Sequence record: OL631484.1
DNA from: Escherichia phage ECML-606-1
Reading direction: 5' to 3' (one strand)
Length of the DNA: 64,000 nt
The translations under genes were made by a program, and so were the position numbers. Positions within the stretch are counted from its first letter, which is position 1, and every line of letters starts with the position of its first letter. The notes under the pieces are model-generated. The model saw nothing but the letters and a program-made list of their open reading frames with translations. It was not told the DNA's origin and ran no database searches. Below are positions 7,499 to 40,144 of this stretch, piece by piece.

Positions 7499-7574
7499 GA
7501 TTCTGTAGCTACAGCGGTAGAGCGGCGCACTGTTAATGCGCGGGTCGCTGGTTCGAATCCAGCCAGAATCGCCA
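7499..7574 (+). tRNA. tRNA-Asn (anticodon GTT)
   Basis: hand-folded 76-nt cloverleaf: acceptor GATTCTG/CAGAATC, anticodon stem GCGCA/TGCGC with loop CTGTTAA, T-loop TTCGAAT, encoded CCA. Confidence 0.9.
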
Positions 7575-14581: not shown

Positions 14582-14617
14582 GGCGTATTCCTCAGGTTGG
14601 ATTGGTTAACGGCTGAG

Positions 14618-14646
14618 ATAATACGTCATGCGTGCCGTATGGTCAA
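14618..14646 (-). promoter_or_regulatory. sigma70-like promoter TTGACC-N17-TATTAT with palindromic operator in spacer
   Basis: minus-strand hexamers; spacer contains ACGGCACGCATGACGT. Confidence 0.45.
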
Positions 14647-15990: not shown

Positions 15991-18900
15991 TTATACGCTC
16001 GGCAGGATGATACATTCCACAACGGTCATGCCGCTGCCGCCAAAGCCATCGGCGTCCTTAGTCCCCGATTCGTTCACCTTAGTGATGAGTAGGCGGGTAT
16101 TAGGTGGCAGGATAATTTCTTTTTCCCCGGTATGGTGCGAGATAGATCCACCACTCGGAAGCGAGCCAGCGCCCGCATAGATACCTTTTACGCCGGGGCC
16201 TGCTGTCATTTTGAGGTGAATATTACCACTCCACACGTCTGGACTGATAGACGTGGACATAATTGCAGGCTCCATGATGACCTTGCCGACCGACGCTTTC
16301 AGCTTGGAGAGATCACCGCTGCCCAGACTGAATTTGCGCCCGAACGTGGTACCCGGCGAAATTTCATGGCCCATACCAGACAGCGCCTGCGCTGCTGCTT
16401 TCGCTTCTGCGCTTGGGTTGCCCTTCCACAGTCCGCTGTTCATCTGCTTATAACTGCTACCAGTATACGCCTGCACGGCCTGCTTTTGTGTCATCGGCAG
16501 CTTTTCCCACACTTCCTGTGCTGCTTTGGCATAAGTGTTTGTGGTCAGCGTGCCAGCCTTGAAAGTGGTTTTAGTAATGCCAAGGTCTTCCGGCTCAACA
16601 ATCCCCGGATGGCCCAGCACCAGCAGGTTCCCGATCTTGTCTGCATCGTTACCGCTCCAGTTTTCCGGCTTGTATTCTTCGTGCATCGAATACAGCGGGT
16701 GATCGCCGCCGATACGGAACTGCTCGGCTTCATGCCCGGTAAGCTGGCTCTTAATCTCGTTAATCGCCTGCATCGCGTAGCCTTTGATGTGCTGCGATGG
16801 GTGATCGAGCACTGGCACCTGTCCGGTAACAGCTCCGGTGTCTTTGTCAAAGGTTGGCGCGGTCAGGCCGCGAATGGCTTCCGGGTCTCCGGTCAGCGCC
16901 GCAGAATAAATGGCCTGCGCCGCGTCGTGGTTCCCTTTGTTCAGGAACTCTTTGGAGGACGGGCCGGATTTGCCAACGCCAGACCAGTTGAGGAAGTCAG
17001 GCGGGGTACTGATTTTCTCCGGCTTGAATTTCTGCATTTTGATGATCTGCTCGGCTTCCGGGTACTTCTCAGCCAGATACTCTTTGCGCTTGATGAGCGT
17101 TTCCACCAGCTCTTTTTTGGCCTTCTCATCGCCCGGCCCATACTGGTTGACCATGTGCGCGATTTTGGCGTCGGAGATAGCCAGCACCTTGGAGACAGAC
17201 GCGGCGATATCGGCCTCAGTCATGCCACCGAAGACGGCGGCGCTGTTCGCGTTCATCTTCGGATCCATCAGTGACTCCAGCTCCTTAACTACCGGGCCAA
17301 ATTCTTTCTTCGCACCCTGCGCACGGAACATCAGCGAGCCGCCCGCATCGACGCGGTGAATGGTGCCGTCATCTTTCAGCTGCACGTTGTCTTTCGCCAG
17401 CCCCACGACATCCCAGTTACCCAGCCACGCATCAACGGCAAAGCCTTCCAGCATACCCTTGGCCTTCGCCAGCGCTGCATGGGTTTTGGCCTTCTTGATG
17501 TTCTCCCACTTCGAGGCAATAGCCATTTTCCCGTCCTTGGTGACGATCATGGCGTCCTGCGCGGACAGGCCAGCGGCGCTATACAGTTTCGCTGCCAGCA
17601 CCTCAGCCTTGGCGTGCTCCTCGTTATCCGGGAACTTCACATACCATTCCTGCCCATCGGCGTCCTTCATTTTCATGCCTTCATTCGAACCGCCTTGGTT
17701 GCCCCCGGTCACTGTCCACTCATCGACGCTGATCGGCTCTTTCTTCTTCCACTGGTACTTTTTGACCTCCATCGGGCCATCAGCGGCAAGGCCATTCTCT
17801 GCCGGGTTGCTGGTCGCGGCGGTAGCATTCATCAGCTGCGCGACGCCATTCATAGCATAGGTGCCATTCACCTCAGGGTTATAACCGGACTTAACCTTGA
17901 TCCCATTAGCCATCAGCATCATCGACGCATATTGCGCCAGCGCCTTTTTACCCGGCGCGGTCGGGCCATACTCCGTTGAGACCTTAATTTTCATCCCAAA
18001 CTCGCCATAAATCAGCATCGAACCATCGGCTTTCTGCATGATGACGCCTTTGGTGCCGCCGCCTTTGGTCAGCTTGGCTTTGAGGTTATCTACATATTTC
18101 ATGTAGTGATCCTGCTGCCAAGCGCTCAGGCCAAGCGCAGCGAAGTCAGGTGCTGGGATCTCGTCAGGATTGGCCCTAACCCAGCGCCCGTTTTTCAGGA
18201 TCAGCATCCCATTGGCACCCGGCTTCATGTCGCCTTCTTTCGGGCCATCGCCTTCTTTCTGGCCCTCGTCGGCTTTCTTAGCATCTTCTTCGGCTACGGT
18301 GTTTTTGATAGCCGTCAGGATCCCTTCGATAGCCACAGGAGTAAAGTCGTTGATGATAAGCACGCTCTTAATGGTGCTGACCGCATCCACTTTGTCCGGG
18401 TTGGCGTCGTAGTATTCCTTGCACGCCACCGACGCCTTGACGACCTTTTGCAGCCCGGTTTTGGTCTCCGCGATGCTCTTGATGTCGTCCAGCAGTTTCA
18501 GGTCGATATTACCCAGCTCCGGCGCGGCAGGTTCAGGCGCAGGCGCAGGCTCCTCAGCTCCGGTGATCTGATCCTGTACAAAGGTCATGGTGCTGATCGC
18601 GTAATCCGTCATGCTCATCTTGACCACATCGGTGCCCTGATTCGCCATCAGCGCATACGCGGACTCTTTGACGCTGTTCAGCACGGCCTCTTTCATTTCC
18701 GGCGAGTCGGTGTACTTCGCCAGCATCGCCATCGCTGCCAGACCATCCAGCGCATCTGCATCCGCCATGCTATCGCCCTTGTAACTGGCTTTCGGGATCC
18801 CCTGCGGGACGCCGTGCATGTTGATGCTGTCTTTCAGTATGGACTGGAGGACAGGGATATGGGCCACGTTATCGCCTGCGGCCTTCACGATGTCCTGATA

Positions 18901-21900
18901 GGTGGCAGGGTTGTCGCCTTTCTTCGCCACGTAATCCTGTACAGCCATCAGCGTTTCGAGGTTGTCTTTGGCGTTGTTGAAGACCAGCCCAAGGTCATAC
19001 ATGTTTTTCGGCTTGCCCGGCGCAGCGGTCAGCTTGTCCAGCACCTCAGCCATGTACTCCTTGTACTTGGTACCGTTGATCGTGGTGCTCGGCGTCACGT
19101 TCTGCTCATATTTCATAGCCTCAATGAGCAGCTTTTTGCTGTTCTCATCCTTCGCCAGTGTTGCAGCGATGGCGTAGCCCTGAAAATCAGTTGCCTCGGT
19201 CGAGTAGAAACCAACGTCCGGCTTAATCGGCAGGTTGAGCGGCTTGCCATGCTTTTTGAAGTAAGCCTGACCGATTTCAGACGCAGCGTAGACGTGCCCG
19301 CTGTTCATTTTCAGGATATTGTCGATAACAGTCGTGTACGCGCCCTTATCGCCATGGTTATCCTTGATGAATTCCAGACCGATGCTGGTCGCATCATCGC
19401 CGTTCGCGCCAGCGAGGGCCTGTTTGAGCGCCACAATCTCGCTGCCCGCGCTGCCATTGGCTGAGGTCTCAGGCATATCCTGCTGTAAGATCCAGTGCCC
19501 ATTATGGAAGACCAGAATACCGCCTTTACCCTGCTTGGTATCACCTTCTTTCGGGCCATCCTCTACCAGCCACTTATTGACCTCCTGCTGGTACAGTTTA
19601 ACCTGCACAGCAGCTGGCTCTGAAAGGTGAAGCTCGCTCAGCTCATTAAAGTGCTTGGCGATCACATCAGGATCTGATTCTTTGCCTTTGTGAACTTCTT
19701 CGGCAATGACGTTATAGAGGGTCTGCACTTTCGTGCCATAGGTTTTCACCGTGTCGCTGGTTGGTGATACCAGCGGTTTTTCTGGCTCAGTCCCGTAAGT
19801 CTCACTCCACCACTTACCATAGGCTTTCTTGCCAGCGATAAAGAACTCATTCGCCAGCTCGTTAAACCCATTGTCCTTCATGGCCTCAGCCAGCACCACC
19901 AGCTGCGGCGCATCATGCCCATTCGCCGTCATCCAGTCGCCAGCAATCGCGTCGGCCTGTTTTTCGTCCTTGGCATCTGTCAGCGCATCAAAGGCGCTTT
20001 CCCACATGGCGTAATCATTCAGGATCGCTTTCTTCTCCTGCTTACGCTCATGTTTGGTGGCAATCTGCTCGGATTTCGCCGCAGCCTGAGACTTCTCGGC
20101 CCATGAATCGTACAGCTTCCCGACGCTGGACTCGGAGAAGGCCAGATCGCTACCGTAATAGGTAGACGCCTGCTCAATGAATGCCTCGCCTTTTGTCTTC
20201 GCCCACTCGTTGAACTCAGCCACATCGGCAAAATCCGGCAGCTGCGGCTCAGGGGTTGGCGCACGCTCCTGCTTGATCTGCGGTGGCGTCGGCAGGGATT
20301 TCACGGAGATATCGCCCAGCTCTTTCTTGGCGGCGGTCACGGCTTCGATGATCCACGCGGACAGATCAACCTTCTGGAAGGCATCAATCAGGTTCTGGTC
20401 ATCACGGATCACTGTCACCATGTCGTTGATGTTGTCCACAGCCAGCGCCCAGTTACCCGCGTTGAGGTCATTCTGGATGTCCTCACAGATGCCGTCGATA
20501 AACGCATCACCAGTCTGCGGAGGATTGGAGAAAGTCTTCACTCCCTCAGGCTTAGGCGCAGCAGCAAGGCCCAGAGACTCCGCCAGATTGACCGCAGGCT
20601 CTTTGCCAGCCATTACCTGCTGGTAAACCTCATTCTGCGTGTTGGAGAAGCCGGAGATATGGCCCCAGTCGCCCTTCTCGTTAACCCACATACCAGATCC
20701 CGGATTCTTCGGATCCGCGACGATGACTGCGCTGGTATTGGTCGGGTAAACGCCTGCGTCTGGAGTCGTGGACAGCACGCCATTCCACATGTTCTTGATG
20801 ACGTTTTGCTGCTTCTGGGTCAGGTGATTCGGCTTGCCCAGCTCCACCAGCTCGGTCGGGTACTCGCTATGGTGATAGTCGGAAATGTAGCCCAGATTGT
20901 CCGGGGTTTTGGTGTTGCCACCAAAGCCGATCAGTTTCAGGTACTGTCCCGCTTGGAACGGCTTAGCCAGCGGCTCACCCTTCTTGCTTATAGGCCATGC
21001 GGTCGCGTGCCCCATCAGCACTTTCAGGTACGGCTTACCGTCCTTGTCGTAGGTCTGGATGATTGAGCCTGCGGGCAGGTTCGGCATATCGGAGATCGAC
21101 AGCTTCTGGCCCTTTTTGAACTCACCAGCGACAGGCTGATCCTTGAGCGGCTCGCCAGTCTCCTGATTGTGCCAGCGACCGTCTTTGAAAACCTGCATCC
21201 CGTTTTTGCCCATGCGGGTATCACCTTCCTGCGGGCCTTCCTCAGCCCGGACGGTTTTCTGCTGCTCAACCTCTGCGCTGGCCTTCTGATCCTTTTCTGC
21301 CTGGCTAAACTGGCCCAGCATTGGATGCACGGCGTCTTTGCCGATAACCACTTTGATATCCGGGTAGCCCAGCGCTGCCAGCGCGTTATTCGCAGCCTTG
21401 GCGACTTTGAGCCCGTAGGTGTTTTTTCCGTATGTCATCGCCAGAATGCCGTTGATGTTGCCTACTTCGCCAGCGGCCTTGATAGCGGCGATCTGCGCGT
21501 TGTAGCTCTTGGCATTCTTAATGTTCTCCGCGACGGCGAACTGGCTCCAGTCGATAGCGTCCATGGCCTTCTTCGACACGGATGCTTTCGGGGCTGGCTT
21601 GCCTTCGGCGGTGTCCGGCTGCGCCGGGGAGGTAGCGATGATTTCAACCGCGCTCAATGGGCTCGGCTCCTCGGACTGCACCAGCGGCTTATTCGGATTC
21701 TCACCCGTCAGCAGCGCCAGCTTTTGCCCGTAGAGGTTCAGCAGCTTTTTGCTGTTCGGGGTGATGCCCTTCCAGCTTTTCGCCTTGCTCTTGATAGCTT
21801 CCAGCTCCGCCAGACTGGTGGCGTCGATGACCTTCTGAGCCTGCGCCTCATACGCGGTGCGCACGCCAGTGGAGTTTTTGCCGGATTCAAATTTAGGCAT

Positions 21901-22764
21901 GACGATTTCGCCTGGCTTCGGTGCTTCGGCAGCAGGTGTTGAGGCTTTCTGGACTTCTTCTTTAGCTGCGTTTTTTTTCTCAGGTGAAGGAGACGGCCCA
22001 TCTTTTGGCATAATAAGGCTTAGTTTTTTTGCTCCACCCGGTTCAGTTTTAAAGTATCCAAACTGCGTACCGTAATTCTCAATCGCGTGCAGCTGGTGCT
22101 GTTTTAAATCACCAATCTCAATAGTGATGACGTTATTTTTTACTTTGTATGCTTCAATCGGTGGCAGACCTAGGTAACTCTCAATTCCAGAAACAATGGC
22201 TTGTTGTTTGGCTGTCAAATTACCTGTAGCTGGTTTTGTTGCTGCCTTTGCCTCTTGCGCTACGGCTTCAATGGCCTGCTCAGCCATCTGATCGACGGTC
22301 TCAGGCTCTCTCTCGTATGTGGCGATGGCAGGGTGCTCACCCGCTTTCTGGCCCGCGCTGACCTTCTCCTGCGAGCCCATTTGCTCCAGCAGATAGTTGG
22401 CAATCGCCACCAGCTTTTTACCGTGGGTGTTCACGCCATAGGATGATCCCAGAATCGCCGCGATATCGCCGTTGGCAGCGTGCTGCAACAGGTTCGGGAC
22501 GTGTTTCTGGTTGAAATGCTTAATGTCTTTGTTGGTCGCCTCTTTCTCAGCAGGATAGAGCAGCTGGCTCGACTCCTCCTTAGGCATGGCGTAAGGCTTA
22601 TGGCCTTTGCCACCAGCTTTAGGGTGCGCGGCTTTCGGGGCGTTCTTGACGCCCTTCATGTCCGGCGTGGTTTTCTTCCAGCGCCCATTGATCAGAGCAT
22701 AGCCCGCTTGGTGGGCGAATTTTTGATTAAGTGCTTTTGCGAGGACAAGCATGGTGGCCACCAT
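15991..22764 (-). CDS. giant virion-associated protein with C-terminal ADP-ribosyltransferase-like domain
   Basis: 2257 aa; C-terminus has TFGRKF, IMSTSIS (STS) and GEKEIILPP (ExE); recurring internal motifs EGDTKxGxxGxxVFxNGRW and ILGSSYGVNTHG / ILAMTYGKNTYG. Confidence 0.65.
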   Translation of the reverse strand: MVATMLVLAKALNQKFAHQAGYALINGRWKKTTPDMKGVKNAPKAAHPKAGGKGHKPYAMPKEESSQLLYPAEKEATNKDIKHFNQKHVPNLLQHAANGDIAAILGSSYGVNTHGKKLVAIANYLLEQMGSQEKVSAGQKAGEHPAIATYEREPETVDQMAEQAIEAVAQEAKAATKPATGNLTAKQQAIVSGIESYLGLPPIEAYKVKNNVITIEIGDLKQHQLHAIENYGTQFGYFKTEPGGAKKLSLIMPKDGPSPSPEKKNAAKEEVQKASTPAAEAPKPGEIVMPKFESGKNSTGVRTAYEAQAQKVIDATSLAELEAIKSKAKSWKGITPNSKKLLNLYGQKLALLTGENPNKPLVQSEEPSPLSAVEIIATSPAQPDTAEGKPAPKASVSKKAMDAIDWSQFAVAENIKNAKSYNAQIAAIKAAGEVGNINGILAMTYGKNTYGLKVAKAANNALAALGYPDIKVVIGKDAVHPMLGQFSQAEKDQKASAEVEQQKTVRAEEGPQEGDTRMGKNGMQVFKDGRWHNQETGEPLKDQPVAGEFKKGQKLSISDMPNLPAGSIIQTYDKDGKPYLKVLMGHATAWPISKKGEPLAKPFQAGQYLKLIGFGGNTKTPDNLGYISDYHHSEYPTELVELGKPNHLTQKQQNVIKNMWNGVLSTTPDAGVYPTNTSAVIVADPKNPGSGMWVNEKGDWGHISGFSNTQNEVYQQVMAGKEPAVNLAESLGLAAAPKPEGVKTFSNPPQTGDAFIDGICEDIQNDLNAGNWALAVDNINDMVTVIRDDQNLIDAFQKVDLSAWIIEAVTAAKKELGDISVKSLPTPPQIKQERAPTPEPQLPDFADVAEFNEWAKTKGEAFIEQASTYYGSDLAFSESSVGKLYDSWAEKSQAAAKSEQIATKHERKQEKKAILNDYAMWESAFDALTDAKDEKQADAIAGDWMTANGHDAPQLVVLAEAMKDNGFNELANEFFIAGKKAYGKWWSETYGTEPEKPLVSPTSDTVKTYGTKVQTLYNVIAEEVHKGKESDPDVIAKHFNELSELHLSEPAAVQVKLYQQEVNKWLVEDGPKEGDTKQGKGGILVFHNGHWILQQDMPETSANGSAGSEIVALKQALAGANGDDATSIGLEFIKDNHGDKGAYTTVIDNILKMNSGHVYAASEIGQAYFKKHGKPLNLPIKPDVGFYSTEATDFQGYAIAATLAKDENSKKLLIEAMKYEQNVTPSTTINGTKYKEYMAEVLDKLTAAPGKPKNMYDLGLVFNNAKDNLETLMAVQDYVAKKGDNPATYQDIVKAAGDNVAHIPVLQSILKDSINMHGVPQGIPKASYKGDSMADADALDGLAAMAMLAKYTDSPEMKEAVLNSVKESAYALMANQGTDVVKMSMTDYAISTMTFVQDQITGAEEPAPAPEPAAPELGNIDLKLLDDIKSIAETKTGLQKVVKASVACKEYYDANPDKVDAVSTIKSVLIINDFTPVAIEGILTAIKNTVAEEDAKKADEGQKEGDGPKEGDMKPGANGMLILKNGRWVRANPDEIPAPDFAALGLSAWQQDHYMKYVDNLKAKLTKGGGTKGVIMQKADGSMLIYGEFGMKIKVSTEYGPTAPGKKALAQYASMMLMANGIKVKSGYNPEVNGTYAMNGVAQLMNATAATSNPAENGLAADGPMEVKKYQWKKKEPISVDEWTVTGGNQGGSNEGMKMKDADGQEWYVKFPDNEEHAKAEVLAAKLYSAAGLSAQDAMIVTKDGKMAIASKWENIKKAKTHAALAKAKGMLEGFAVDAWLGNWDVVGLAKDNVQLKDDGTIHRVDAGGSLMFRAQGAKKEFGPVVKELESLMDPKMNANSAAVFGGMTEADIAASVSKVLAISDAKIAHMVNQYGPGDEKAKKELVETLIKRKEYLAEKYPEAEQIIKMQKFKPEKISTPPDFLNWSGVGKSGPSSKEFLNKGNHDAAQAIYSAALTGDPEAIRGLTAPTFDKDTGAVTGQVPVLDHPSQHIKGYAMQAINEIKSQLTGHEAEQFRIGGDHPLYSMHEEYKPENWSGNDADKIGNLLVLGHPGIVEPEDLGITKTTFKAGTLTTNTYAKAAQEVWEKLPMTQKQAVQAYTGSSYKQMNSGLWKGNPSAEAKAAAQALSGMGHEISPGTTFGRKFSLGSGDLSKLKASVGKVIMEPAIMSTSISPDVWSGNIHLKMTAGPGVKGIYAGAGSLPSGGSISHHTGEKEIILPPNTRLLITKVNESGTKDADGFGGSGMTVVECIILPSV

Positions 22765-22796
22765 TCAACGAATAATGGCCCAGTGTGGCATCACGA

Positions 22797-23042
22797 CTAA
22801 TTAACGTCTTTCACCTTCCTACCGAAGCGCTCCACGCACGCGAGAAACGCCTCCTGTTTCGTGTGGCAATACTCCGACAGCATCGTGGAGTGTTTGCCGT
22901 CATGAAACTGGATCTCCCACTTCGCGGATCCGGTCTTTGGCGGGCCGGGCCAGTCAGCGGCGGCGTCGTATACCGCCTGCTGCTCCGGTGTCATCTGGAA
23001 ACTCAACGGCCTGCTGCCTTCTTGAGCTCCATGACGATGCAA
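22797..23042 (-). CDS. hypothetical protein
   Basis: small ORF in minus-strand gene chain; start uncertain. Confidence 0.3.
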   Translation of the reverse strand: MHRHGAQEGSRPLSFQMTPEQQAVYDAAADWPGPPKTGSAKWEIQFHDGKHSTMLSEYCHTKQEAFLACVERFGRKVKDVN

Positions 23043-23443
23043 TGAAGCGTGTCCAGCTGTTCATCGGTCGCATGACTCAGCAGCTGGCTCAGGCCAAATC
23101 CACCGCTCATTTCATTCTGGATAACGCTGCGCATCGCTGCCTTGCGCTGCTCGTAGGCAAAGTCAGCCTCGTCACGGTAAACGTCAAGCGCCGGATATCC
23201 ACTGGTCTGCGGGACGTGGTTACGATTCCCCCAGTCCTTAATGGCAATGCGCTCCTGCCAGCATTCCGGCACGCTATTGCTCTCTTTGGCGCGGTCAATG
23301 TCTGATTGCCGGGCGACGTAAAGCCATTTGGTTCCTTTGCGGACAACAATCATGATCCCGCGTGGAGGGCTGCGCCTATCGCGCGGGCCAATAAACAGGG
23401 TGTCGCCAGATTTCAGGGCTTTCAGGTCGGTTTCTTTCAGCAT
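23003..23443 (-). CDS. hypothetical protein
   Basis: 146 aa; ATG at 23443 with AAGGA SD. Confidence 0.45.
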   Translation of the reverse strand: MLKETDLKALKSGDTLFIGPRDRRSPPRGIMIVVRKGTKWLYVARQSDIDRAKESNSVPECWQERIAIKDWGNRNHVPQTSGYPALDVYRDEADFAYEQRKAAMRSVIQNEMSGGFGLSQLLSHATDEQLDTLHCIVMELKKAAGR

Positions 23444-23453
23444 GGGGGAATCC

Positions 23454-23786
23454 TTAAATTTTGATTAAATGGGCTTTGTGAATACGCACGGTGCCGTAAC
23501 TGTAGCGGCCTTTCTTGCGGATATTCAGCTCGTAATACTGCCGGAAGTCGATCCCCGGCTCATTCCAGTTAAGAGTCACGAAAATGCCATGGACGTGCAG
23601 GACATCCAGCGGGCGATCATTGCCACGGATAAATACGCGGTCGCCTGGCTTGAGCTCCTGCTTGGTGGATTGCATCACCTCCAGCGCAAGATCAGCGTCT
23701 ACCTCAGTCGCATGGTAGCCAGCCTGCCACGTATACCAGCCATTCGCGCCAGCTGCGCGGATATGGTTTTTAATTGAGTTGATCAT
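23454..23786 (-). CDS. hypothetical protein
   Basis: ATG at 23786 with AAGGA SD (track ORF extends to 23882). Confidence 0.4.
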   Translation of the reverse strand: MINSIKNHIRAAGANGWYTWQAGYHATEVDADLALEVMQSTKQELKPGDRVFIRGNDRPLDVLHVHGIFVTLNWNEPGIDFRQYYELNIRKKGRYSYGTVRIHKAHLIKI

Positions 23787-23826
23787 GGGTTGGTTCCTTA
23801 AATGCCGCATCCCTGCGGTGTGGTTA

Positions 23827-24432
23827 TTATGCTGCGATACCGCGCTGCCCGGTGCCGATTGCCAGACGAGCCTTGCGGTCATAGTGCCCGATCAGGCCCA
23901 TGGTGATCAGGATGCCAGCCGCCAGCGAAATAACGACGAGCAGAATGACCAGCTGCGCCTGCTTACTGTCTTTGCTGTCTCCGCCCTTGAATAGCTTGCT
24001 CACGCTATCCCACGCGCCGGACACTCCACCATTAGCCGCGTTGTAGATGTTGTGGGCGCTGGCGAATGTGTTCCATGCTGCTGCCCCCATGTTGGCCCAG
24101 TTGCGTTCCCGGTATGCCACGATCCAGCTATGTACAGTGATCAGCAGCCCTGTACCGATAGCCGGGATAATGATGCCCAGATACCAGAGGCTGATTGCCG
24201 CCTGCGCATATTTCTCGTCGAGGTGCCCGGTAAGGTACGCCGCGTATACTTCAATGAAGATAATCACGCTGGAAAAGCCGATTGCGGCCTGAATAGCTCC
24301 GCACCAGACCAGCACCCGGATCCAGCCGCCAAGGCGTTTGGACTCGGCCCACATCGTCCCGCAGGTCTTGCAGTTGAACCAGCTGATCAGCAGGTTGAGG
24401 GCCAGAATTCCCCACAGCATTAACATTCCCAT
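23827..24432 (-). CDS. multi-pass inner membrane protein
   Basis: about 200 aa with at least 5 hydrophobic helices; ATG at 24432 with AAGGA SD. Confidence 0.45.
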   Translation of the reverse strand: MGMLMLWGILALNLLISWFNCKTCGTMWAESKRLGGWIRVLVWCGAIQAAIGFSSVIIFIEVYAAYLTGHLDEKYAQAAISLWYLGIIIPAIGTGLLITVHSWIVAYRERNWANMGAAAWNTFASAHNIYNAANGGVSGAWDSVSKLFKGGDSKDSKQAQLVILLVVISLAAGILITMGLIGHYDRKARLAIGTGQRGIAA

Positions 24433-24475
24433 TTTGTTTCCTTTGAAAAGTGCCGGGAGCCGCCCGGCGCGGTTG

Positions 24476-24694
24476 TTATTTATCTTTCTCGCGGTTGTAG
24501 CGCTCATGGGTTAGCAGATCCCATGTATCGCCATTATCCCGGCTCAGCAAACGCCAGCGGATGCCGACCTTTAACGAGATACCACCGCTGCGCTTGAGGT
24601 GGGTTATTGCTGCCTCTCCGCGCTGCCACATTTCCAGAATCTGCCCGGCTTTTATCAGCGCCTGAGCGGGAATTCCTTTCATTGCCTTGAACAT
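24476..24694 (-). CDS. hypothetical protein
   Basis: 72 aa; ATG directly after hairpin/U-run carrying GGUGAGG SD. Confidence 0.4.
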   Translation of the reverse strand: MFKAMKGIPAQALIKAGQILEMWQRGEAAITHLKRSGGISLKVGIRWRLLSRDNGDTWDLLTHERYNREKDK

Positions 24695-24723
24695 AAAAAA
24701 GCCTCACCTTGGGTTGGTGAGGC
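24695..24723 (-). terminator. hairpin plus U-run whose 3' arm carries the SD of the next gene
   Basis: GCCUCACC-loop-GGUGAGGC then U6 then ATG at 24694. Confidence 0.45.
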
Positions 24724-24724
24724 T

Positions 24725-24753
24725 ATATTATTACGTCATGGGTGACGTGTCAA
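24725..24753 (-). promoter_or_regulatory. sigma70-like promoter TTGACA-N17-TAATAT with perfect palindrome ACGTCATGGGTGACGT in spacer
   Basis: minus-strand hexamers; palindrome at 24733-24748. Confidence 0.5.
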
Positions 24754-25115
24754 CGGGTCGGCACCACTTCTACACCACCGTTGTAGTAGTCGCAGCGCAC
24801 CCACATCTGAACATCCGGCCTGAACCGCGTCGGGCGCTGGGTTCGCCATCCCTGCCACGCCCCTGACTCACCTTTTGCGTAAATTTCCAGCTGCCCTACT
24901 TCAACCGTTGGCAGGTCACAGGCACGCATCCAGCGATAGTGTGGTTTGGTGCGACGAAGTGCCGGGCCGACCGCAGTATGCCAGTGGCGCAGCTGTGCCT
25001 CTGTCAGATGCTCAGGCCAGCGTGGCAAATCGGAATTCAGATGCTGAGGGTCAATCTGGAACAGGTACGCGTTATACGCTGCCTCGCCCAGAGTCATCGC
25101 TTTAGCTCGGCTCAT
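24750..25115 (-). CDS. hypothetical protein
   Basis: ATG at 25115 (MSRAKAMTLGE...); track ORF extends to 25160. Confidence 0.4.
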   Translation of the reverse strand: MSRAKAMTLGEAAYNAYLFQIDPQHLNSDLPRWPEHLTEAQLRHWHTAVGPALRRTKPHYRWMRACDLPTVEVGQLEIYAKGESGAWQGWRTQRPTRFRPDVQMWVRCDYYNGGVEVVPTR

Positions 25116-25116
25116 A

Positions 25117-25425
25117 TCAGTACGTCCTGAATCCGTTGCAGTTGCGCAGGAAGTCCACAAAGTCGGCCTTAAACTCTTTGGCCCGGTCGGCTTCGGAACT
25201 AAACCAGCCCGGCGTCGGCTCCCACGCTTCGATGATGTCAGCCATCTTGCCAGCAGTGCGCGGAGAGACCACCCACGGGTCAGTCGTTTTACGCTGCTCT
25301 ACCTGCGGCAGCTTCGCCATGCCCGGCAGAAATACCAGCGTCCACCATGTCCCGTTTGCGATTCCATAGCCCGGCAGACGGTTCGGGTCGCCTTTACGGC
25401 GGCGATCTTCAATCTCGATACTCAT
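25117..25425 (-). CDS. hypothetical protein
   Basis: 102 aa; ATG at 25425. Confidence 0.4.
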   Translation of the reverse strand: MSIEIEDRRRKGDPNRLPGYGIANGTWWTLVFLPGMAKLPQVEQRKTTDPWVVSPRTAGKMADIIEAWEPTPGWFSSEADRAKEFKADFVDFLRNCNGFRTY

Positions 25426-25688
25426 ACAGATTTATCCCCCGTGTAATCAGCCACTACCTTCCCGTTGTTGTCGAAATACTTGATCTGATACATCGGGTGG
25501 CAATTGTGTTTGTGCTTCCCATATTTCAGCTGGTTGGCAAATACCACATCCAGATTCGCGCTGCCGTTCACCCCGGCGATGGTACCGATATCGCCCTGCA
25601 CCTCAACCATCATCCCCAGCTTGGCAAACGTGATCCCACGAGTGCGGGCCATGCCTTCTTCGAACTGCTTCGCCTTATTCACCATCAT
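25422..25688 (-). CDS. hypothetical protein
   Basis: ATG at 25688; overlaps neighbours by a few nt. Confidence 0.35.
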   Translation of the reverse strand: MMVNKAKQFEEGMARTRGITFAKLGMMVEVQGDIGTIAGVNGSANLDVVFANQLKYGKHKHNCHPMYQIKYFDNNGKVVADYTGDKSV

Positions 25689-26127
25689 CCTGCTCCTTTG
25701 CTGGTTCGCGCAGGGCACGGGCGTAATGCTCCGCGCGGGCGCAGATGTTGTTCATGCTGCTGCGCTCTTTGTCGAGCCAGTCAGCCTTGAATGCCGCCTT
25801 TTCTCCATCAGGCAGGACGCTCAGGGCTTTCTCATATGCCCGGCGCTCAGCCATGCTACCGATCAGGAATGACTCGAATACCTCAGCCAGCGCCTCTTTG
25901 TCGCACTGTTCAAAGGATTCTCCGACCGTTTTACCGAAGGTATTCTGGAAAAACTCCTCGGTGCCGCCAAACAGGAACAGCGGGACTTTGCGCGGCTCAG
26001 TCTCGGCATCGAGCTCAGTCGCGCCATATTGACCGCCCATGATGCCCACGGCGATAGCCGCAAGCTCATGCGTCGGCGCTTTAAAGGTGATTTTGTCTGA
26101 CGGGTTGATCAGCTCCCAGAGGATCAT
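25675..26127 (-). CDS. hypothetical protein
   Basis: ATG at 26127 with GAGGAG SD, ATGA overlap with upstream gene. Confidence 0.4.
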   Translation of the reverse strand: MILWELINPSDKITFKAPTHELAAIAVGIMGGQYGATELDAETEPRKVPLFLFGGTEEFFQNTFGKTVGESFEQCDKEALAEVFESFLIGSMAERRAYEKALSVLPDGEKAAFKADWLDKERSSMNNICARAEHYARALREPAKEQDDGE

Positions 26128-26420
26128 GATGCTGACTCCTCTTTTGGTTTGCCTTCGAATTTCTTGCCGCAGAATGGGCAATAATTCATCGTCATAAACG
26201 AACTGCCATCAGTGCAGCGCTGGGCCAGCGAGCCATCTTTCTTGCGCTTGAGAAAGCGGAAGGTGTAAGGCACGGTGACGCTGGAGTGGTCGCCCTCAGC
26301 CAGGACAAACACGCTGTTTGTCCAGTTGGCTTCTTCGATCTCTCCAATTTGATCGCCAAAGCGCTTGGTCAGGTGCTCTTTGAACTGAGCTCCCAGCTTT
26401 TTGAAACAATCACAGGCCAT
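26124..26420 (-). CDS. small zinc-ribbon protein
   Basis: 98 aa with CDCF...CPFCGKKF Cys pairs; ATG at 26420. Confidence 0.4.
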   Translation of the reverse strand: MACDCFKKLGAQFKEHLTKRFGDQIGEIEEANWTNSVFVLAEGDHSSVTVPYTFRFLKRKKDGSLAQRCTDGSSFMTMNYCPFCGKKFEGKPKEESAS

Positions 26421-26496
26421 CAGGAATCCTTTTAGGGTTGGTTAAATAACCCGTAACGCACCGCGCTACGGGGCTTTATTGCTTGATGCGTGGTTG

Positions 26497-26524
26497 ATGA
26501 TACGTTATGCGTGACGTAATGCAA
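26497..26524 (-). promoter_or_regulatory. sigma70-like promoter TTGCAT-N16-TATCAT with operator-like palindrome ACGTTATGCGTGACGT
   Basis: minus-strand hexamers; palindrome at 26502-26517. Confidence 0.45.
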
Positions 26525-26556
26525 GTATTATTTACGCCACTGCTGACGCATGGAGT

Positions 26557-26577
26557 AAAAAAGGCCCCGTAGGGCCT
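26557..26577 (-). terminator. rho-independent terminator (GGCCC-CGTA-GGGCC hairpin + U-run)
   Basis: hairpin 26561-26577 followed on minus strand by U6. Confidence 0.55.
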
Positions 26578-26664
26578 TCGCTTATTTACTGTAAACGGGG
26601 CTCAGACCATGATCTGAGTGCCCGTGTCCTGCTCCCCCGGTCGGGGCATTCCATACCGGGGCTT

Positions 26665-28080
26665 TCACTTTGGGGCAGTGGTAGGCTTCGGCTCGACCGA
26701 CGCTGGTTTGCCTGGCTGATTGCGGATCGTGGTAGCCAGCGCTCCCGGTCGCGTCGCAAAGTAGGTGTAACGCCATTTCCCGGTCTGGGTCTCCCAGTAT
26801 TTCACGCGCCAGCCTGAATCCTGATCTTCCCACGCCTCAGAGTAATACGCGGGCTTAGAATCGTTATCAGCATTGCGCTGCGCGATAGCTGCGGCCTCTC
26901 CGGTCGGCTTCCAGCCGTGCAGGTTGATCTCCTCACCTCCACGGTTCTGGATATGGCGCTGGTATTCAGCGCGAAGGGTGTCCTCAATTCTCGCCAGCTC
27001 AGCGGTTGCCTTACGGCCTGCTGCCGTACAGTAGAAGTGTGTCAGCTGCTCGAAGCGGTCAAAGCCGTTGGTCATGTTCAGGAACACTTTGGCCTTGCGG
27101 TCATACATCAGCTGGAGGTGTGGCTCCATCCATCCCTGCGTCGGGCGCTCTTTCATGTGAATGTGATACTCAGCCGTTTCTGTCCGGTCGTGCGGGATCA
27201 CATCCAGACGGTACAGATAGCCATGACGCCAGCAGCGCTTGTCTGTACGCAGGGTGCCATCGCTCAGCTCCTCCTCCGCGAGCTCCAGACGTTTCTCGCT
27301 GCCCGGCTTCACATCGGACAGGCCCAGCGAAACACGGCGGTGGACTTCCGCGATCATGCGCTGCGTCGTGTAATGGGGTTGCAGGGTGATGACCAGACCG
27401 CTGATTTTGGCACGCAGCGGGGCCAGCGGGTGCAAGCGCTTCACCACGTCCTCAATGGTTTCATCGCGCTGCTGCAAATGCAGCTGCCCGGACTCCAGCG
27501 GCTCGTAATCATCAGGGGCGGCGTGATCCAGTGTCAGCGCATCGACGGTCTTACCCTGCACCATACGCATACCACGGCCCAGCTGCGGGGCATGTACTAC
27601 CTGACTAACAGCCTCTTTCTGCTGCTCGGTCAGCTCAGGCTCCTCTACCGCGCGGGCCATCAGCTTTTGCAGGTCTGGGGTTGGGTTGGCTGGCGCTTCC
27701 AGCACTTCCTGAGGCACGACTGGACGCGTGCCACGGCCTGCTAATTGTACCCAAGGCTCACCGCCAGAAGGGAATCGGTCATTCAGATTGAGCACGTACT
27801 CAGCGTGGGCGAAGGCATCAGCCAGAGTCATCACCGGATCGATGTGAATGGTCTTGCCGTCATAAATCAGGTCAATGGGTTGGTTTGCAGCGACGGCACG
27901 GCCTACGGCGTTCAGGAGCGCTTCACCTTCTGCGGCGTGGAGTTGAGGCACTTCTTGCTGCTGGGCTTTTACCATTTCCAGACAGGACATAAACGACTCA
28001 GCTTTTGCCTCAGTAAACTTCTCATTGTGCAGGGCGTTAAATACAGCAACAGCGCGGGCAATAACGGATAATTTCGACAT
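26665..28080 (-). CDS. hypothetical protein (471 aa)
   Basis: long ORF, ATG at 28080; no motif recognised. Confidence 0.5.
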   Translation of the reverse strand: MSKLSVIARAVAVFNALHNEKFTEAKAESFMSCLEMVKAQQQEVPQLHAAEGEALLNAVGRAVAANQPIDLIYDGKTIHIDPVMTLADAFAHAEYVLNLNDRFPSGGEPWVQLAGRGTRPVVPQEVLEAPANPTPDLQKLMARAVEEPELTEQQKEAVSQVVHAPQLGRGMRMVQGKTVDALTLDHAAPDDYEPLESGQLHLQQRDETIEDVVKRLHPLAPLRAKISGLVITLQPHYTTQRMIAEVHRRVSLGLSDVKPGSEKRLELAEEELSDGTLRTDKRCWRHGYLYRLDVIPHDRTETAEYHIHMKERPTQGWMEPHLQLMYDRKAKVFLNMTNGFDRFEQLTHFYCTAAGRKATAELARIEDTLRAEYQRHIQNRGGEEINLHGWKPTGEAAAIAQRNADNDSKPAYYSEAWEDQDSGWRVKYWETQTGKWRYTYFATRPGALATTIRNQPGKPASVEPKPTTAPK

Positions 28081-28099
28081 TAAAGCATCCTTTGTTCAA

Positions 28100-28501
28100 T
28101 TAATTTTCTTGAAACAGCTTGTTGATTTCCAGCATTGCGGTACGGATAAAATCGCAATGCGCTTTATTTCTTACCAGACTGACGTTATTTTGACGCTCTA
28201 ACTTTTTGGCTACCTCCATCACTAATTTCAGGCTTTCAACGTTTGCGTTAATCTCGCATTCACGTTCTGCGGTGATCTCTGCCCACTTCTGGCCTACCGG
28301 GCGAACATGACGGCGCTCATAACGGTTTCCGCCCTCATACTCCCCGTTATGTTTGTAAAACTTCACGCCAGCCACGACGAACGTGTTTTTATAGACACGA
28401 TCAACGTTTATTTTGCGGTACACGTTGAATGTGTGTGAGCCGGGAACATCCACGCGCTCAGTAATTAAAACAACATCACCTTTCTTAACATTCTCGAACA
28501 T
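28100..28501 (-). CDS. hypothetical protein
   Basis: 133 aa; ATG at 28501 immediately after hairpin/U-run carrying GGAGGA. Confidence 0.45.
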   Translation of the reverse strand: MFENVKKGDVVLITERVDVPGSHTFNVYRKINVDRVYKNTFVVAGVKFYKHNGEYEGGNRYERRHVRPVGQKWAEITAERECEINANVESLKLVMEVAKKLERQNNVSLVRNKAHCDFIRTAMLEINKLFQEN

Positions 28502-28531
28502 AAAAAAAGTCCTCCGCTTGTGGGGAGGACT
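28502..28531 (-). terminator. hairpin plus U-run carrying SD of downstream gene
   Basis: AGUCCUCC-loop-GGAGGACU then U7 then ATG. Confidence 0.45.
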
Positions 28532-28558
28532 TTAGCGCGTTATCTTTTTTGACGCAAG

Positions 28559-28587
28559 AATTATTTACGGCATACGTGACGCATCAA
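28559..28587 (-). promoter_or_regulatory. sigma70-like promoter TTGATG-N17-ATAATT with CGTCACGTATGCCG element in spacer
   Basis: minus-strand hexamers; overlaps stop codon of methyltransferase gene. Confidence 0.35.
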
Positions 28588-30095
28588 AAGGCATCGTCAT
28601 CTTCATCAGGATCCGGCAGGTGCCGATCCTCGGTCTCCTCCGGGAATTCCTCTCCGGTGTAGAAGTGGACGGCCTTACGCCCGGTCAGGTTCTGCCAGCG
28701 ACGAATCGCCACATCAGCAAAGCCCAGATCGAGCTCCATCACGCGTGCGCATACGCCCATTCGCTCGGCGGCCACCAGTGAAGTACCAGAGCCGGAGAAG
28801 GGATCCACCATGATGTCATTCAGGCGCACGGTGTTCTTCATCATGCGCTCCCACAGCTCCACGGGCTTCTGCGTCGGGTGCAGGTCGCTGCGGTCAGGAC
28901 GCGGCACGCTGACCACGCTGCCCAGCATTGACTCCACCTTGGCGTCGCCTTCCACCCGCATGATGAGATCGCCGTACTGGAAATACCAGTTACCCTCGGC
29001 ATCCTGTTTGAATGGGCTTGAGTCGCCAAACTCCGCGACGGTCGTTTGCTTCCTGCCACCGTGCCAGCGGTGCTTGGCACCCTTGCGCCAGCCGTACAGG
29101 ATTGGTTCATGGATGCTTTGGAAGTCAGCCATGCCCAGTGTCATGCTGTTCTTCTTCCAGATGACATTCTGGGAGAAGTGGAAACCGACCTTTTCAAACG
29201 CCCAGCGCAGGCCATGGGCCATCTTGTCGGAGTGGCTGATATAGGTCACGCCGCCCGGCTGCATCGCGTCATAGGCGCAGCTCAGGACATTGACGAGGAA
29301 CTGATTAAAGTCCTCCTCGTTTTTCCAGTCGTTAGCGATCCCGCCAGTGCGCGAGCGCTCGCCTCCGATGGCCTTATCCATGCGCTTATTCTTCTTGCCC
29401 ACATCGACGTTATACGGGGGATCGGTCAGCATCATGTTGGCCTTCTCGCCCTGCATCAGCGCCAGCCAGCTTTCCGGCTGCTCAGCATCGCCAACATACA
29501 GGCGATGAGCGCCCAGCACCCACAAGTCGCCCGGACGGCTCTTTGGCTCGTCAGGAAGCGGTGGCGCATCATCGGGATCGCTGTCACCTCCTCCTCCCTC
29601 CATCGGCGGCAGCTTCATGATCTCGTCCAGCTGCTCAGGGTCGAAGCCGATAACATCCAGATCGTAGTCCAGATCAGCCAGGGCATTCATTTCGATGCGC
29701 AGCATGTCCATGTTCCACTCGGACGCCCGGCCCAGCTGGTTATCCGCGATGATGTACGCGCGGCGCTTAGCCTCATCCCAGCCAGTGCAGTCCAGCGTCG
29801 GCACCATGCCAATAGGGATCGGTGTGCCATCCGGGAAAGCAATTTGCTTGCCCTCGCTGTACAGCTTCATCGCTGCCAGCTGGCGTCCATGGCCTGCCAC
29901 AATCCCTTGCTCATCGACGAGGATGGCGTTAGTCCACCCGAATTCAAGCATTGACGCGGCGACCTTCTGGACGTGCGCCGGGCTATGGTCGTTTGAGTTG
30001 TTCACGTAGGGGATGAGGCTATCAACCGGGCGCAGCCGGATCATCGGGGGGATCACGTCCAGCCCCAACATCTTGTTAAAATCTTTATCAGCCAC
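28584..30095 (-). CDS. DNA methyltransferase with N-terminal ParB-like nuclease domain
   Basis: ParB/Srx-like VAGHGRQLAA; methyltransferase motif IV LTDPPYNV before motif I VDPFSGSGTS (beta-class N6A/N4C order). Confidence 0.7.
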   Translation of the reverse strand: MADKDFNKMLGLDVIPPMIRLRPVDSLIPYVNNSNDHSPAHVQKVAASMLEFGWTNAILVDEQGIVAGHGRQLAAMKLYSEGKQIAFPDGTPIPIGMVPTLDCTGWDEAKRRAYIIADNQLGRASEWNMDMLRIEMNALADLDYDLDVIGFDPEQLDEIMKLPPMEGGGGDSDPDDAPPLPDEPKSRPGDLWVLGAHRLYVGDAEQPESWLALMQGEKANMMLTDPPYNVDVGKKNKRMDKAIGGERSRTGGIANDWKNEEDFNQFLVNVLSCAYDAMQPGGVTYISHSDKMAHGLRWAFEKVGFHFSQNVIWKKNSMTLGMADFQSIHEPILYGWRKGAKHRWHGGRKQTTVAEFGDSSPFKQDAEGNWYFQYGDLIMRVEGDAKVESMLGSVVSVPRPDRSDLHPTQKPVELWERMMKNTVRLNDIMVDPFSGSGTSLVAAERMGVCARVMELDLGFADVAIRRWQNLTGRKAVHFYTGEEFPEETEDRHLPDPDEDDDAF

Positions 30096-30630
30096 GTTCG
30101 ATCACCACTCTAATGTTGGTTTCATTGCCATTGCCCTTATCCAGCCCCCACGCCTTACGCTCCCCGTTCTGGGTATTGGTCAGCGTTTCGGAGGTGATTT
30201 TGGCGAGTTTAGCCAGATCAAAGTTTTTGTCTTTGATGGCCTGATAGGCGAGGGTGCGCGGGTAGTCCCATTCCTTCTGGTGCTTCTCCAGCAGGTTGGC
30301 GCGAGCCAGCGCAGCGAACTCGGCGGTAATCTCATCCGCCAGCGCGTTGAGCTCGTCCTCAGTGACTACGCCCAGTTTGGCCCGGCGCTTCTTGAACTCC
30401 TCCAGCGCCTCTTTGCTCATCCCGCTCAGGTTGGGATCCTGCTTGCACCAGCCCTCCACGCGGACTTTGCCAGAAATGGTGTCAGGCGCTACGTTAAATT
30501 CCTTGGCGAGAAGCGACGGCGTGGCTTCCGGGTCACTCTCGTAACGGATCCGCAGTGCCGTCCATGCCTCTGCCGACAGCTTGACGCGAGGCTTACGCCC
30601 CGTGGCTTTTGTCTTGCGTGGCGTCACCAT
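30088..30630 (-). CDS. putative DNA-binding protein (HTH-like)
   Basis: 180 aa, basic N-terminus, LAKEFNVAPDTIS helix-turn-helix-like segment. Confidence 0.35.
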   Translation of the reverse strand: MVTPRKTKATGRKPRVKLSAEAWTALRIRYESDPEATPSLLAKEFNVAPDTISGKVRVEGWCKQDPNLSGMSKEALEEFKKRRAKLGVVTEDELNALADEITAEFAALARANLLEKHQKEWDYPRTLAYQAIKDKNFDLAKLAKITSETLTNTQNGERKAWGLDKGNGNETNIRVVIERG

Positions 30631-30789
30631 GATTTCCTCCTTTAGCGCCGTCCTTGGCGCGGGTGTTAATGACTGGTTTCCTGACGTTTCTTTTCCTCTG
30701 CGGTGCAGAGGTCAAGCAGCGTCTGCGAGTGGGCAGCGAAAGACTGCGCCAGCGTTGAGAGGCTGTTTCTCAGGTTGTGCATGTTGCGA

Positions 30790-31194
30790 TCATCGGCCTG
30801 CACGGCTACATGCGTCAGATGAGCAGCGGTGTTTGCACTGTCCTTTGCCAGCTCCAGCAGGCTTGGGATCGGTGTGAACATCGAACAATTCAGCATCGAG
30901 GTTTCGGACATTTGGGGTCTCCTTGCGGACGAATAACTGGTGGAATCGTGCGGGCTGCAACAGGAGTGTGCCGCCTCGCGGTGCGGTAACGAGGTATTGC
31001 CCGGCCTGCGGGCGCATCAGGGTGGCCCACTCAGGATTCACTACCAGCGGCGCGATATCCTCATGGAACACGATGACCATGCCTGCGGTCGGGTGCAATT
31101 TCATATCCCGGATGCGGTGCGCTGTCACCATGGGCAGCTGGTACGGCACGCGGGGGCGATAATGGCTCAGGCCAAACGGGCTATTCTTCTGCAT
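30790..31194 (-). CDS. hypothetical protein
   Basis: 134 aa, ATG at 31194; overlaps a second small ORF (30666-30911), only one may be real. Confidence 0.3.
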   Translation of the reverse strand: MQKNSPFGLSHYRPRVPYQLPMVTAHRIRDMKLHPTAGMVIVFHEDIAPLVVNPEWATLMRPQAGQYLVTAPRGGTLLLQPARFHQLFVRKETPNVRNLDAELFDVHTDPKPAGAGKGQCKHRCSSDACSRAGR

Positions 31195-31878: not shown

Positions 31879-31950
31879 TGGGTTGTCCTTGTTAAAAAGC
31901 GCTCAGAGAGCGTCTGAGCGCGTTATGGTTGATTCTATTCTTTTTTGCGA

Positions 31951-35144: not shown

Positions 35145-35367
35145 AGTGCAGTTTCATTACACGTTCGTGTAACTCCATTCTGGCATCACGGCCTCGCTTT
35201 TTCTCGATGGCATCAAGCAGCGCGTAACGGTCTGCCTTGCTAGGCAGGTTCAGCACGTACCGGGCTTCACATTCCAGTAACCACTCGCGGGAATCGCTTG
35301 GCACCTGCCGACCGTCCACCAGCTCCACCAGTGGGGCCTTCCAGCTGCACGCGTTTCTCGTTTCCAT
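35110..35367 (-). CDS. hypothetical protein
   Basis: 85 aa; AAGGAG SD before ATG 35367; promoter upstream. Confidence 0.45.
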   Translation of the reverse strand: METRNACSWKAPLVELVDGRQVPSDSREWLLECEARYVLNLPSKADRYALLDAIEKKRGRDARMELHERVMKLHFATKEREARYG

Positions 35368-40067: not shown

Positions 40068-40115
40068 TATCTCGTTAAGTACCATTTAAAGGGGTTTTGT
40101 GTTGGAACGAGGCTA

Positions 40116-40144
40116 ACTATACGGCACAGGTGACGCGTCCGCAA
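40116..40144 (-). promoter_or_regulatory. sigma70-like promoter TTGCGG-N17-TATAGT with operator-like palindrome in spacer
   Basis: minus-strand hexamers; spacer contains ACGGCACAGGTGACGC. Confidence 0.45.

Follow-up and report, generated by a model that had tools for sequence, protein, structure and literature searches.

In the fold-back structures of insertion sequences, the RNA structure that buries the ribosome-binding site is complete in read-through RNA alone, and the element's own transcript starts within or past the 5' arm. Terminators at the 5' ends of insertion sequences are described in PMC2965389, which cites the papers on Tn10 and IS200. Here we describe an arrangement in Escherichia phage ECML-606-1 that may be comparable. 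In a 64,000-nucleotide (nt) stretch of its genome (record OL631484.1; the whole stretch is called the window), a hairpin, a run of U and a start codon follow each other without a gap at two intergenic places: site A, before a gene for a 72-amino-acid (aa) ParE-like protein, and site B, before a 133-aa gene. As in IS10/Tn10, IS50 and IS200, a potentially harmful gene would be shielded from read-in transcripts by a 5' terminator and an RNA structure that buries the ribosome-binding site, and the 3' arm carries the Shine-Dalgarno (SD) sequence of the gene to be protected. We consider it on balance probable that each module is a composite intercistronic cassette, in which promoter, intrinsic terminator and ribosome-binding site overlap, so that read-through RNA would be blocked and locally started RNA would be open.

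The modules differ from the insertion sequences in that one hairpin would do both jobs and also host the promoter start, and there is no sequence relationship. Unlike insertion-sequence ends, they are intergenic in a phage genome, each genome has several of them, and repressor operators go with them. With canonical intrinsic terminators they share a GC-rich stem of 7-8 base pairs (bp), a loop and U6-7 downstream of a co-directional gene, but here the 3' arm is the SD of the next gene, the U-tract is the spacer between SD and AUG, the loops are long and rich in C and A, and a -10 hexamer abuts the stem. On riboswitch and attenuator platforms where the 3' arm of the terminator also covers the SD, too, a single hairpin can block both transcription and translation; the modules, on the other hand, have no aptamer, leader peptide, antiterminator helix or Rfam match, and the point at which the RNA starts, not a ligand, would choose the form. 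In the retroregulation of int by sib in phage lambda, the completeness of a hairpin depends on the promoter used, and the structure acts at the 3' end through decay by RNase III. Part of the logic is shared, but the modules lie at the 5' end and would act by termination and SD masking. Coupling of promoters and terminators is described as widespread in bacteria in a 2026 preprint, and PMC6978380 reports reinitiation by polymerase that is retained on the DNA after intrinsic termination. Termination and initiation sites are likewise close in the modules, but there the promoter precedes the terminator, whose hairpin contains the predicted start. That a terminated polymerase might re-initiate at the embedded promoter is speculation by analogy. 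The parts are ordinary; what is unusual is their compact fusion in about 60 bases, with a predicted start inside a terminator hairpin.

Anatomy of the two modules

All coordinates are window positions, and the modules are read on the minus strand, on which nearly all genes near both of them lie. Site A reads TTGACA-CGTCACCCATGACGTAA-TAATAT-A-GCCTCACC-AACCCAA-GGTGAGGC-T6-ATG, with the ATG at 24694. The -35 hexamer TTGACA (24748-24753) overlaps the TGA stop codon (24750-24752) of an upstream 121-aa gene, and the -10 hexamer TAATAT (24725-24730) ends 1 nt ahead of the stem. A promoter scan scores this pair at 10 of 12 consensus matches with a 17-nt spacer, inside which lies a palindromic operator, CGTCACCCATGACGTA (24732-24747). 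The hairpin (24701-24723) consists of a 5' arm at 24723-24716, a loop at 24715-24709 and a 3' arm at 24708-24701, giving an 8-bp stem (6 GC) and a 7-nt loop. The SD, GGTGAGG, lies within the 3' arm, and the T6 run (24695-24700) would serve as both terminator tail and SD-to-AUG spacer. The hairpin folds at -16.5 kcal/mol (z -5.8), and none of 200 shuffles does as well. A bidirectional terminator was rejected, since on the plus strand the stem is followed by ATATTATTAC, with no T-run.

The gene downstream of site A (24476-24694, minus strand) encodes a protein with a ParE-like toxin domain (Pfam PF24732, E 1.8e-16), whose N-terminus is conserved from M1. No recognisable antitoxin adjoins it; the next open reading frame (ORF; 23827-24432) has an N-terminus that is hydrophobic as judged by eye. 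Homologs of the ParE-like protein are scattered over 68 phage records, mainly from Klebsiella and Escherichia.

Site B has the order GTCCTCC (28530-28524)-CCACAAGC-GGAGGAC (28515-28509)-T7 (28508-28502)-ATG (28501). Its hairpin (28509-28530, loop at 28523-28516) has a stem of 7 bp (5 GC), or 10 bp if A-U extensions are included, and an 8-nt loop; the SD, GGAGGA, is again in the 3' arm. The fold is at -15.3 to -18.4 kcal/mol (z -3.3 to -3.8), with none of 200 shuffles as good. The gene that follows (28100-28501, minus strand) belongs to no known family, although homologs were found, and the gene before it encodes an N6/N4 DNA methylase. In two relatives (L004 and L010) the site B cassette is separated from the methylase gene by an extra gene, and the breakpoint lies immediately before the operator. 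Two promoter-like pairs precede the site B hairpin. The outer one, with TTGATG, the operator at 28566-28581 and AATAAT (28560-28587, minus strand), overlaps the stop codon of the methylase gene and lies about 25 nt upstream of the stem. The inner one, TTGCGT (28557-28552) and TAAAGT (28534-28529) with 17 nt between them (28529-28557 in all), has a -10-like hexamer that overlaps the base of the stem.

A preliminary description of this DNA, made from its letters, had proposed a hairpin, U-run and ATG with the SD in the 3' arm at both places. This is borne out in full, at 24723-24701 (GGTGAGG) and 28530-28509 (GGAGGA), both modules ending exactly at the ATG. The operator promoter that it had placed next to each hairpin is there at site A, but at site B it lies upstream as just described, and it is the inner pair that abuts the stem.

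Both hairpins are terminator-like in a consensus scan and in a separate second scan. When a module is defined as a hairpin of -10 kcal/mol or lower, followed by at least six T and then ATG, the window holds 2 where 0.01 are expected, and none of 300 dinucleotide shuffles reaches 2. The GC-rich stem-loop and immediate U-run of an intrinsic terminator are present at both sites, past a co-directional unit and clear of the terminating ribosome: the stem begins 26 nt after the upstream stop codon at site A (24750-24752) and 53 nt after it at site B (28584-28586). PMC4824070 describes suppression of terminators that lie within a few bp of a stop codon; distances of 26 and 53 nt should therefore leave sufficient room for a terminator to act. 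With this full anatomy, the earlier suggestion that the hairpins end read-through transcription is plausible. The modules are set apart from the ordinary terminators of the phage. The gap between U-run and start codon is bimodal, 0 nt in the modules and 13-27 nt in ordinary terminators; the SD of the latter is outside the stem, and a TAnnnT abuts only 1 of the 10 ordinary terminators listed (an antisense non-gene hit being excluded). At the modules the SD lies 7-9 nt before the ATG. An Rfam search of the sequence matched a tRNA alone, the modules having no family at the gathering score or at E<=1.

Conservation and the register of hexamer and stem

Enterobacter phage phiT5282EW (PQ352032.1, 95.5 kilobases (kb), circular) has 96% identity to window bases 22000-31000; its genes beneath the match are all annotated "hypothetical protein". 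By megablast the window has no plasmid relatives. By tblastn, the two downstream genes were found together in a single distant phage, the Yersinia phage fHe-Yen8-01, a myovirus from sewage (92.5 kb), whose proteins are 54% (site A) and 35% (site B) identical to those of the window. The phage family considered here has genomes of about 92-96 kb, and fHe-Yen8-01 is its sole classified member; a search for literature on fHe-Yen8-01 or phiT5282EW found none. Further relatives (L026-L030 and L034-L037) came from protein searches followed by contig look-ups in public assemblies. Because relatives were retrieved through their proteins and the leader sequence was not used, the test of the leader is unbiased. 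The site A ortholog set comprises L026, L028, L029, L030, L034 and the Yersinia phage (downstream proteins 54-89% identical to the window's), and the site B set L004, L026, L034-L037 and the Yersinia phage. A scan of the ParE-like protein alignment against metagenome_contigs and genome_contigs gave no matches, a DNA-pattern scan of IMG/VR gave two near-identical contigs and no others, and a methylase alignment scan gave one contig at 51% identity, in which the downstream region is arranged differently.

For both sites, the module is found at the orthologous place in every relative recovered, with the SD in the 3' arm throughout. Site A orthologs keep a -35 (TTGACA, TTGACT or TTGCTA), the operator, a TAnnnT hexamer (TAGAAT, TACAAT, TATACT or TATAAT), 0-1 base, a 6-8 bp stem, an AACCCA loop, T6-7 and ATG, the T6-7 being retained in 7 of 8 relatives. 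The stem changes in a compensated manner, to GCCTTACC/GGTAAGGC in L029 and GCCTCACT/AGTGAGGC in L030, and in the Yersinia phage it is wholly different (GCCCTT/AAGGGC) with pairing kept. A formal count, made on the five distinct sequences nearer to one another, finds 97.5% of cells paired, where controls with a slid arm give 29-52%; the Yersinia rows were excluded from this count because MAFFT had put their stems one column out of register. Site B orthologs keep TTGC[GA]T, a 17-nt spacer, TA[AGT]AGT, the stem, T7-8 and ATG. Here the stem has a G-U wobble in four lineages (GTCCTCC/GGAGGGC) and 8 bp in the Yersinia phage. The inner pair, TTGCRT-N17-TA[AGT]AGT, does not vary among 8 orthologs, one of them from the Yersinia phage (TTGCAT-17-TATAGT), and is better conserved than the outer operator promoter, whose -10 is degenerate in L034 and L037. 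The conserved portion of the hairpins is the loop rather than the arms; loops are 7-13 nt long and rich in C and A.

The Yersinia phage has additional hairpin, T7-8 and ATG modules, before gene 132 and at 60242. The gene 132 module (TAGACA-18-TATAAT, CCTCAG-AGTTAACCCAACC-CTGAGGA-T7-ATG) has a loop identical to that of site A in the same phage. Module C, at 30154 of the Yersinia phage, before lysis genes, has an ortholog at position 4135 of the phiT5282EW record, outside the window; it is preceded by TCGTGATG[AC]AAAACT, a different, recurrent promoter motif. These further modules fold with z between -4.3 and -5.8.

Where would a local transcript start? In every module, the end of a TAnnnT or similar hexamer lies 0-2 nt ahead of the stem or 1-2 nt into it. 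Written as the hexamer, the next six bases and what follows, site A is TAATAT/AGCCTC-A in the window, TAGAAT/AGCCTC-A in L028 and L034, TACAAT/GGCCTT-A in L029, TATACT/GGCCTC-A in L030 and TATAAT/GCCCTT-A in the Yersinia phage. Gene 132 of the Yersinia phage has TATAAT/CCTCAG-A, site B has TATAGT/CCTCTC-A in the Yersinia phage and TAAAGT/CCTCCC-CA in the window, and module C has AAAACT/GCCCTC-A. At site A (6 lineages), in module C, and at gene 132 and site B of the Yersinia phage, the seventh base after the hexamer is thus A. Anatomy, conservation and this constant register can all be read directly from the DNA. Polymerase with sigma-70 normally starts about 7 nt past the -10 hexamer, and because the hexamer abuts the 5' arm, the predicted start falls on the final base or bases of the arm, or where the loop begins: A24718, within the 5' arm, at site A, and C28522 or A28521 at site B. 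An RNA without the 5' arm cannot form the hairpin, so it would neither be terminated nor hide its SD. The predicted local RNA of site A, ACCAACCCAAGGUGAGGCUUUUUUAUG, folds at just -2.6 kcal/mol (z +0.3 (+0.33)), and that of site B at -4.8 kcal/mol (z -1.0). The preliminary description had the hairpin gating the locally initiated transcripts. With the site A -10 ending so close to the stem, and the predicted start inside the arm, the gate would act on read-through RNA and not on local RNA, which reverses that proposal.

Start sites, termination and SD masking are what we infer from this geometry, and the cassette would work as follows. Transcription arriving from the upstream operon would be terminated by the hairpin and U-run, and any residual read-through RNA would have its SD locked in the stem. 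The module's own promoter, on the other hand, would start RNA at the end of the 5' arm or the start of the loop, with the C/A-rich loop as the 5' leader of the mRNA; this would be why the loops are long, C/A-rich and conserved. Such a local mRNA would not be terminated and would present a free SD, a U-rich spacer and then the AUG. The U6-8 tract would have a dual role, as terminator tail and as spacer between AUG and the SD at the end of the 3' arm, which is why the ATG must follow the U-run directly. The net result would be that the downstream gene (at site A, the ParE-like one) answers solely to its own repressor-controlled promoter.

One near-identical metagenomic genome (L002, IMG/VR UViG 3300011855_000001, about 1470-1503, corresponding to window 24692-24730) departs from this pattern. 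The U6 of site A is replaced by TATATT, which yields a 15-bp perfect palindrome that reaches into the -10 and folds at -23.5 kcal/mol; the predicted local RNA is unchanged. The change resembles a palindrome correction of the template-switch type.

Operator promoters and related hairpins

The operator 16-mer CGTCACCCATGACGTA, if at most 3 mismatches are allowed, has 7 copies in the window, where 0.37 are expected: 14622-14637, 24732-24747, 26501-26516, 28566-28581, 40120-40135, 51948-51963 and 52862-52879. Every copy has a TTGnnn -35 on one side and a TAnnnT-like -10 on the other, with 16-18 nt separating the two hexamers, as in sigma-70 promoters with a repeated palindrome in the spacer, which is the usual site for a repressor in such promoters. 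At the orthologous places, the Yersinia phage carries a variant of the operator, CGTC-N6-GACG. Pfam searches on 30 neighbouring proteins gave no candidate repressor or antiterminator, and the genes adjoining the perfectly palindromic operator at 52862-52879 had no Pfam hits. The copies at 26501 and 52862 have long leaders of a different kind; the former (26501-26516) is followed by a leader hairpin (26472-26450) and then UUAUUUAACC. In L034 and L036 the operator promoter and leader hairpin of window 26421-26560 are absent, and a terminator and SD alone are found there. It seems that whole promoter cassettes come and go together.

Several hairpins hold an SD but have no U-run. A paralogous cassette (51914-51963, minus strand) has the exact operator, TATATT and a hairpin (51945-51914; -8.5 kcal/mol, z -4.1) that holds its SD; it shares the exact 16-mer and operator with site A, and the top of the hairpin, ACC-AACCCAA-GGT, is as in site A, while the lower stem is different. 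At 14591-14637 (minus strand) an operator promoter is followed by a weak CTCAG/CTGAG hairpin with the SD, and the Yersinia ortholog of this site is a full hairpin, U7 and ATG module. The fold strengthens from z -0.7 in the window through -2.5 in the L026 ortholog (SD held, no U-run) to -5.0 in the Yersinia ortholog. A promoter-like motif of a second class, TCGTGATGCCACACT, precedes a hairpin (22780-22756; -15.4 kcal/mol, z -2.8) with the SD GGTGG in its 3' arm, before a 2253-aa gene (the whole at 22756-22796, minus strand). The hairpins at 51945-51914 and 22780-22756 and that of the L026 ortholog stand in the register of the modules. Together with the change in L002, they suggest that the more general function, and one under selection, may be to mask the SD of read-through RNA, with termination added at some sites. 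A rule by which the discriminator pairs with the SD at every operator promoter holds in part; it fails at 14622 and 40120, where folds are at the level of shuffles, and at 26501 and 52862, which have the other leaders. The leader motif that the preliminary description saw recurring was upheld for the copy at 51925-51940, which is part of a duplicated operator-promoter-leader cassette, but as an 8-mer, ACCCAAGG, it is weakly enriched (5 against 1.43), and similar strings of C and A often occur within genes. The motif is better seen as a C/A-rich leader beside the SD, clearest in the duplicated cassette (51907-51963).

The second motif, YCGTGATG-N-nAnnnT, occurs on the minus strand at 2102-2116, 6683-6697, 22782-22796 and 35177-35191 (4 against 0.21 expected), upstream of virion and lysis genes, and is conserved in phiT5282EW, L026, L034 and the Yersinia phage. 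Its TG-n-hexamer resembles an extended -10, and it is a candidate for a second class of promoter, probably a late one. The late promoter of phage P1 (Lpa box AAGTGACTT, 4 nt, TANNAT, no -35) was rejected as a match: the P1 set taken from the annotated record differs in sequence and spacing, and the window promoters have a -35. Kinship with P1 had been suspected from genome size, dispersed operators and a protein of about 2250 aa, and was likewise rejected, the large virion protein and its neighbour being dissimilar to DarB and Ulx. The 2253-aa ORF (15991-22752) shows no similarity to P1 DarB despite a near-identical length; the Yersinia phage annotation for it is a particle-associated ADP-ribosyltransferase toxin.

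A few neighbouring features may be mentioned. The gene behind the operator at 40120 encodes a 437-aa protein (38772-40085) whose membrane anchor domain is of the YadA-like type known from trimeric autotransporter adhesins, an uncommon thing for a phage to carry. A tRNA gene lies at 7499-7571 on the plus strand (Rfam, 61.5 bits), where the phiT5282EW record annotates tRNA-Asn. A 146-aa protein (23003-23443) matches the phage ProQ C-terminal-like domain PF24203 at 25.8 bits, below the cut-off of 27. Since terminator hairpins that have a U-tail are bound by proteins of the ProQ type, a link between this candidate and the modules is conceivable.

Competing explanations and significance

Could the modules simply be intrinsic terminators, squeezed by genome compaction until promoter and SD overlap them for lack of space, with no translational role and a start position that means nothing? 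The anatomy is canonical, many other terminators lie between co-directional genes of this phage, and its intergenic regions are short. However, divergent relatives and non-orthologous modules share one register of hexamer, stem, U-run and ATG, SD-holding hairpins persist where the U-run is absent or lost, and conserved, C/A-rich loops of 7-13 nt are unusual for terminators. Moreover, a gene with its SD buried behind a terminator would be silent unless RNA started inside the hairpin, and we regard plain terminators as unlikely. It is somewhat less probable still that the modules are promoter-proximal attenuators, in which the local RNA carries the hairpin and stops, or is closed to translation, unless a ribosome or a phage factor such as an antiterminator or RNA-binding protein opens it. 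The outer promoter of site B, with a start at about 28553, would give such a leader, about 45 nt long with the full hairpin, and the operator promoter at 26501-26516 likewise has a leader hairpin. At site A and four other modules, on the other hand, the -10 is too near the stem for RNA to start before the 5' arm; a start ahead of a complete hairpin is found for the outer promoter of site B alone, and its -10 is not conserved in L034 and L037, whereas the inner pair is. Leaders of 0-25 nt are also too short for an alternative, antiterminator pairing, and they match nothing in Rfam.

Site B invites a further explanation, which we think very unlikely: that its outer promoter and terminator produce a regulatory RNA of about 50 nt (GCGUCAAAAAAGAUAACGCGC, then the hairpin and U7) with an A-rich 16-mer, TTGCRTCAAAAAAGAT (28542-28557), as its core. 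This 16-mer is non-coding and yet invariant in 8 orthologs, including the Yersinia phage (35-72% diverged), while the adjacent operator has changed, and small RNAs of the Hfq type have a similar layout, with a promoter, an A-rich stretch, a terminator hairpin and a U-tail. But its bases double as -35 and spacer for the inner pair, two relatives have a degenerate outer -10, Rfam has no match and the idea is inapplicable to site A. (A similar string, CAAAAAAGAATAGAAT, precedes the terminator at 31899-31921.) Finally, the inverted repeats might act as DNA, as sites for a dimeric regulator or as cruciforms. They do overlap promoters, and in L002 the palindrome was extended into the -10, but the arms differ between sites and orthologs and still stay complementary, including by a G-U wobble that is specific to RNA (GTCCTCC/GGAGGGC), and it is the loop that is conserved and not the arms. 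This explanation, too, we think very unlikely.

The composite cassette, which we prefer, has several points weighing against it. The predicted starts depend on sigma-70 polymerase beginning about 7 nt past the hexamer, as is its rule. The inner pair of site B has just 7 of 12 consensus matches, and its TAAAGT could be a mere A-tract that pairs with the U-run, while RNA from the outer promoter would carry the whole hairpin, which the model leaves unexplained. Nor does the model account for the invariance of the 16-mer TTGCRTCAAAAAAGAT, for which a short RNA from the outer promoter is an alternative. Covariation at site A is limited to 2 pairs changed on both sides in 5 distinct sequences, a small sample, and it is equalled in 41 of 500 shuffles. 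At least one relative (L002) does without the U-run, and two hairpins downstream of operator promoters (14617-14591, and 40064-40119 behind the operator at 40120) are no better than shuffles. Lastly, the same operator is found in both operons flanking site A, so that the need for insulation is not obvious.

A tentative possibility, less probable than not, is that the composite cassette is a portable "reset" element across the family of phages of about 92-96 kb. Polymerase from upstream would terminate in the hairpin, leaving the upstream mRNA with a protective 3' stem, and a fresh start in the loop, possibly by the same polymerase sliding back about 40 bp onto the embedded promoter, would yield an unstructured leader only when the operator is free. 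Each cassette gene would in this way be insulated at the levels of both transcription and translation and individually controlled, and three types of promoter would have converged on one register.

If transcripts do start where the geometry predicts, the cassette would be a very compact way for a gene, here one with a toxin domain, to obey its own promoter in a dense, mostly one-directional genome. It would unite terminator, initial transcribed region and ribosome-binding site, which are usually treated apart, and would supply synthetic biology with an insulator part ready for use. Annotation pipelines should also take it as a warning if they read a promoter followed by a terminator as an attenuator or a small RNA gene. 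For these phages, it would mean that protection from outside transcription of the kind known from insertion sequences extends to the architecture of phage operons.

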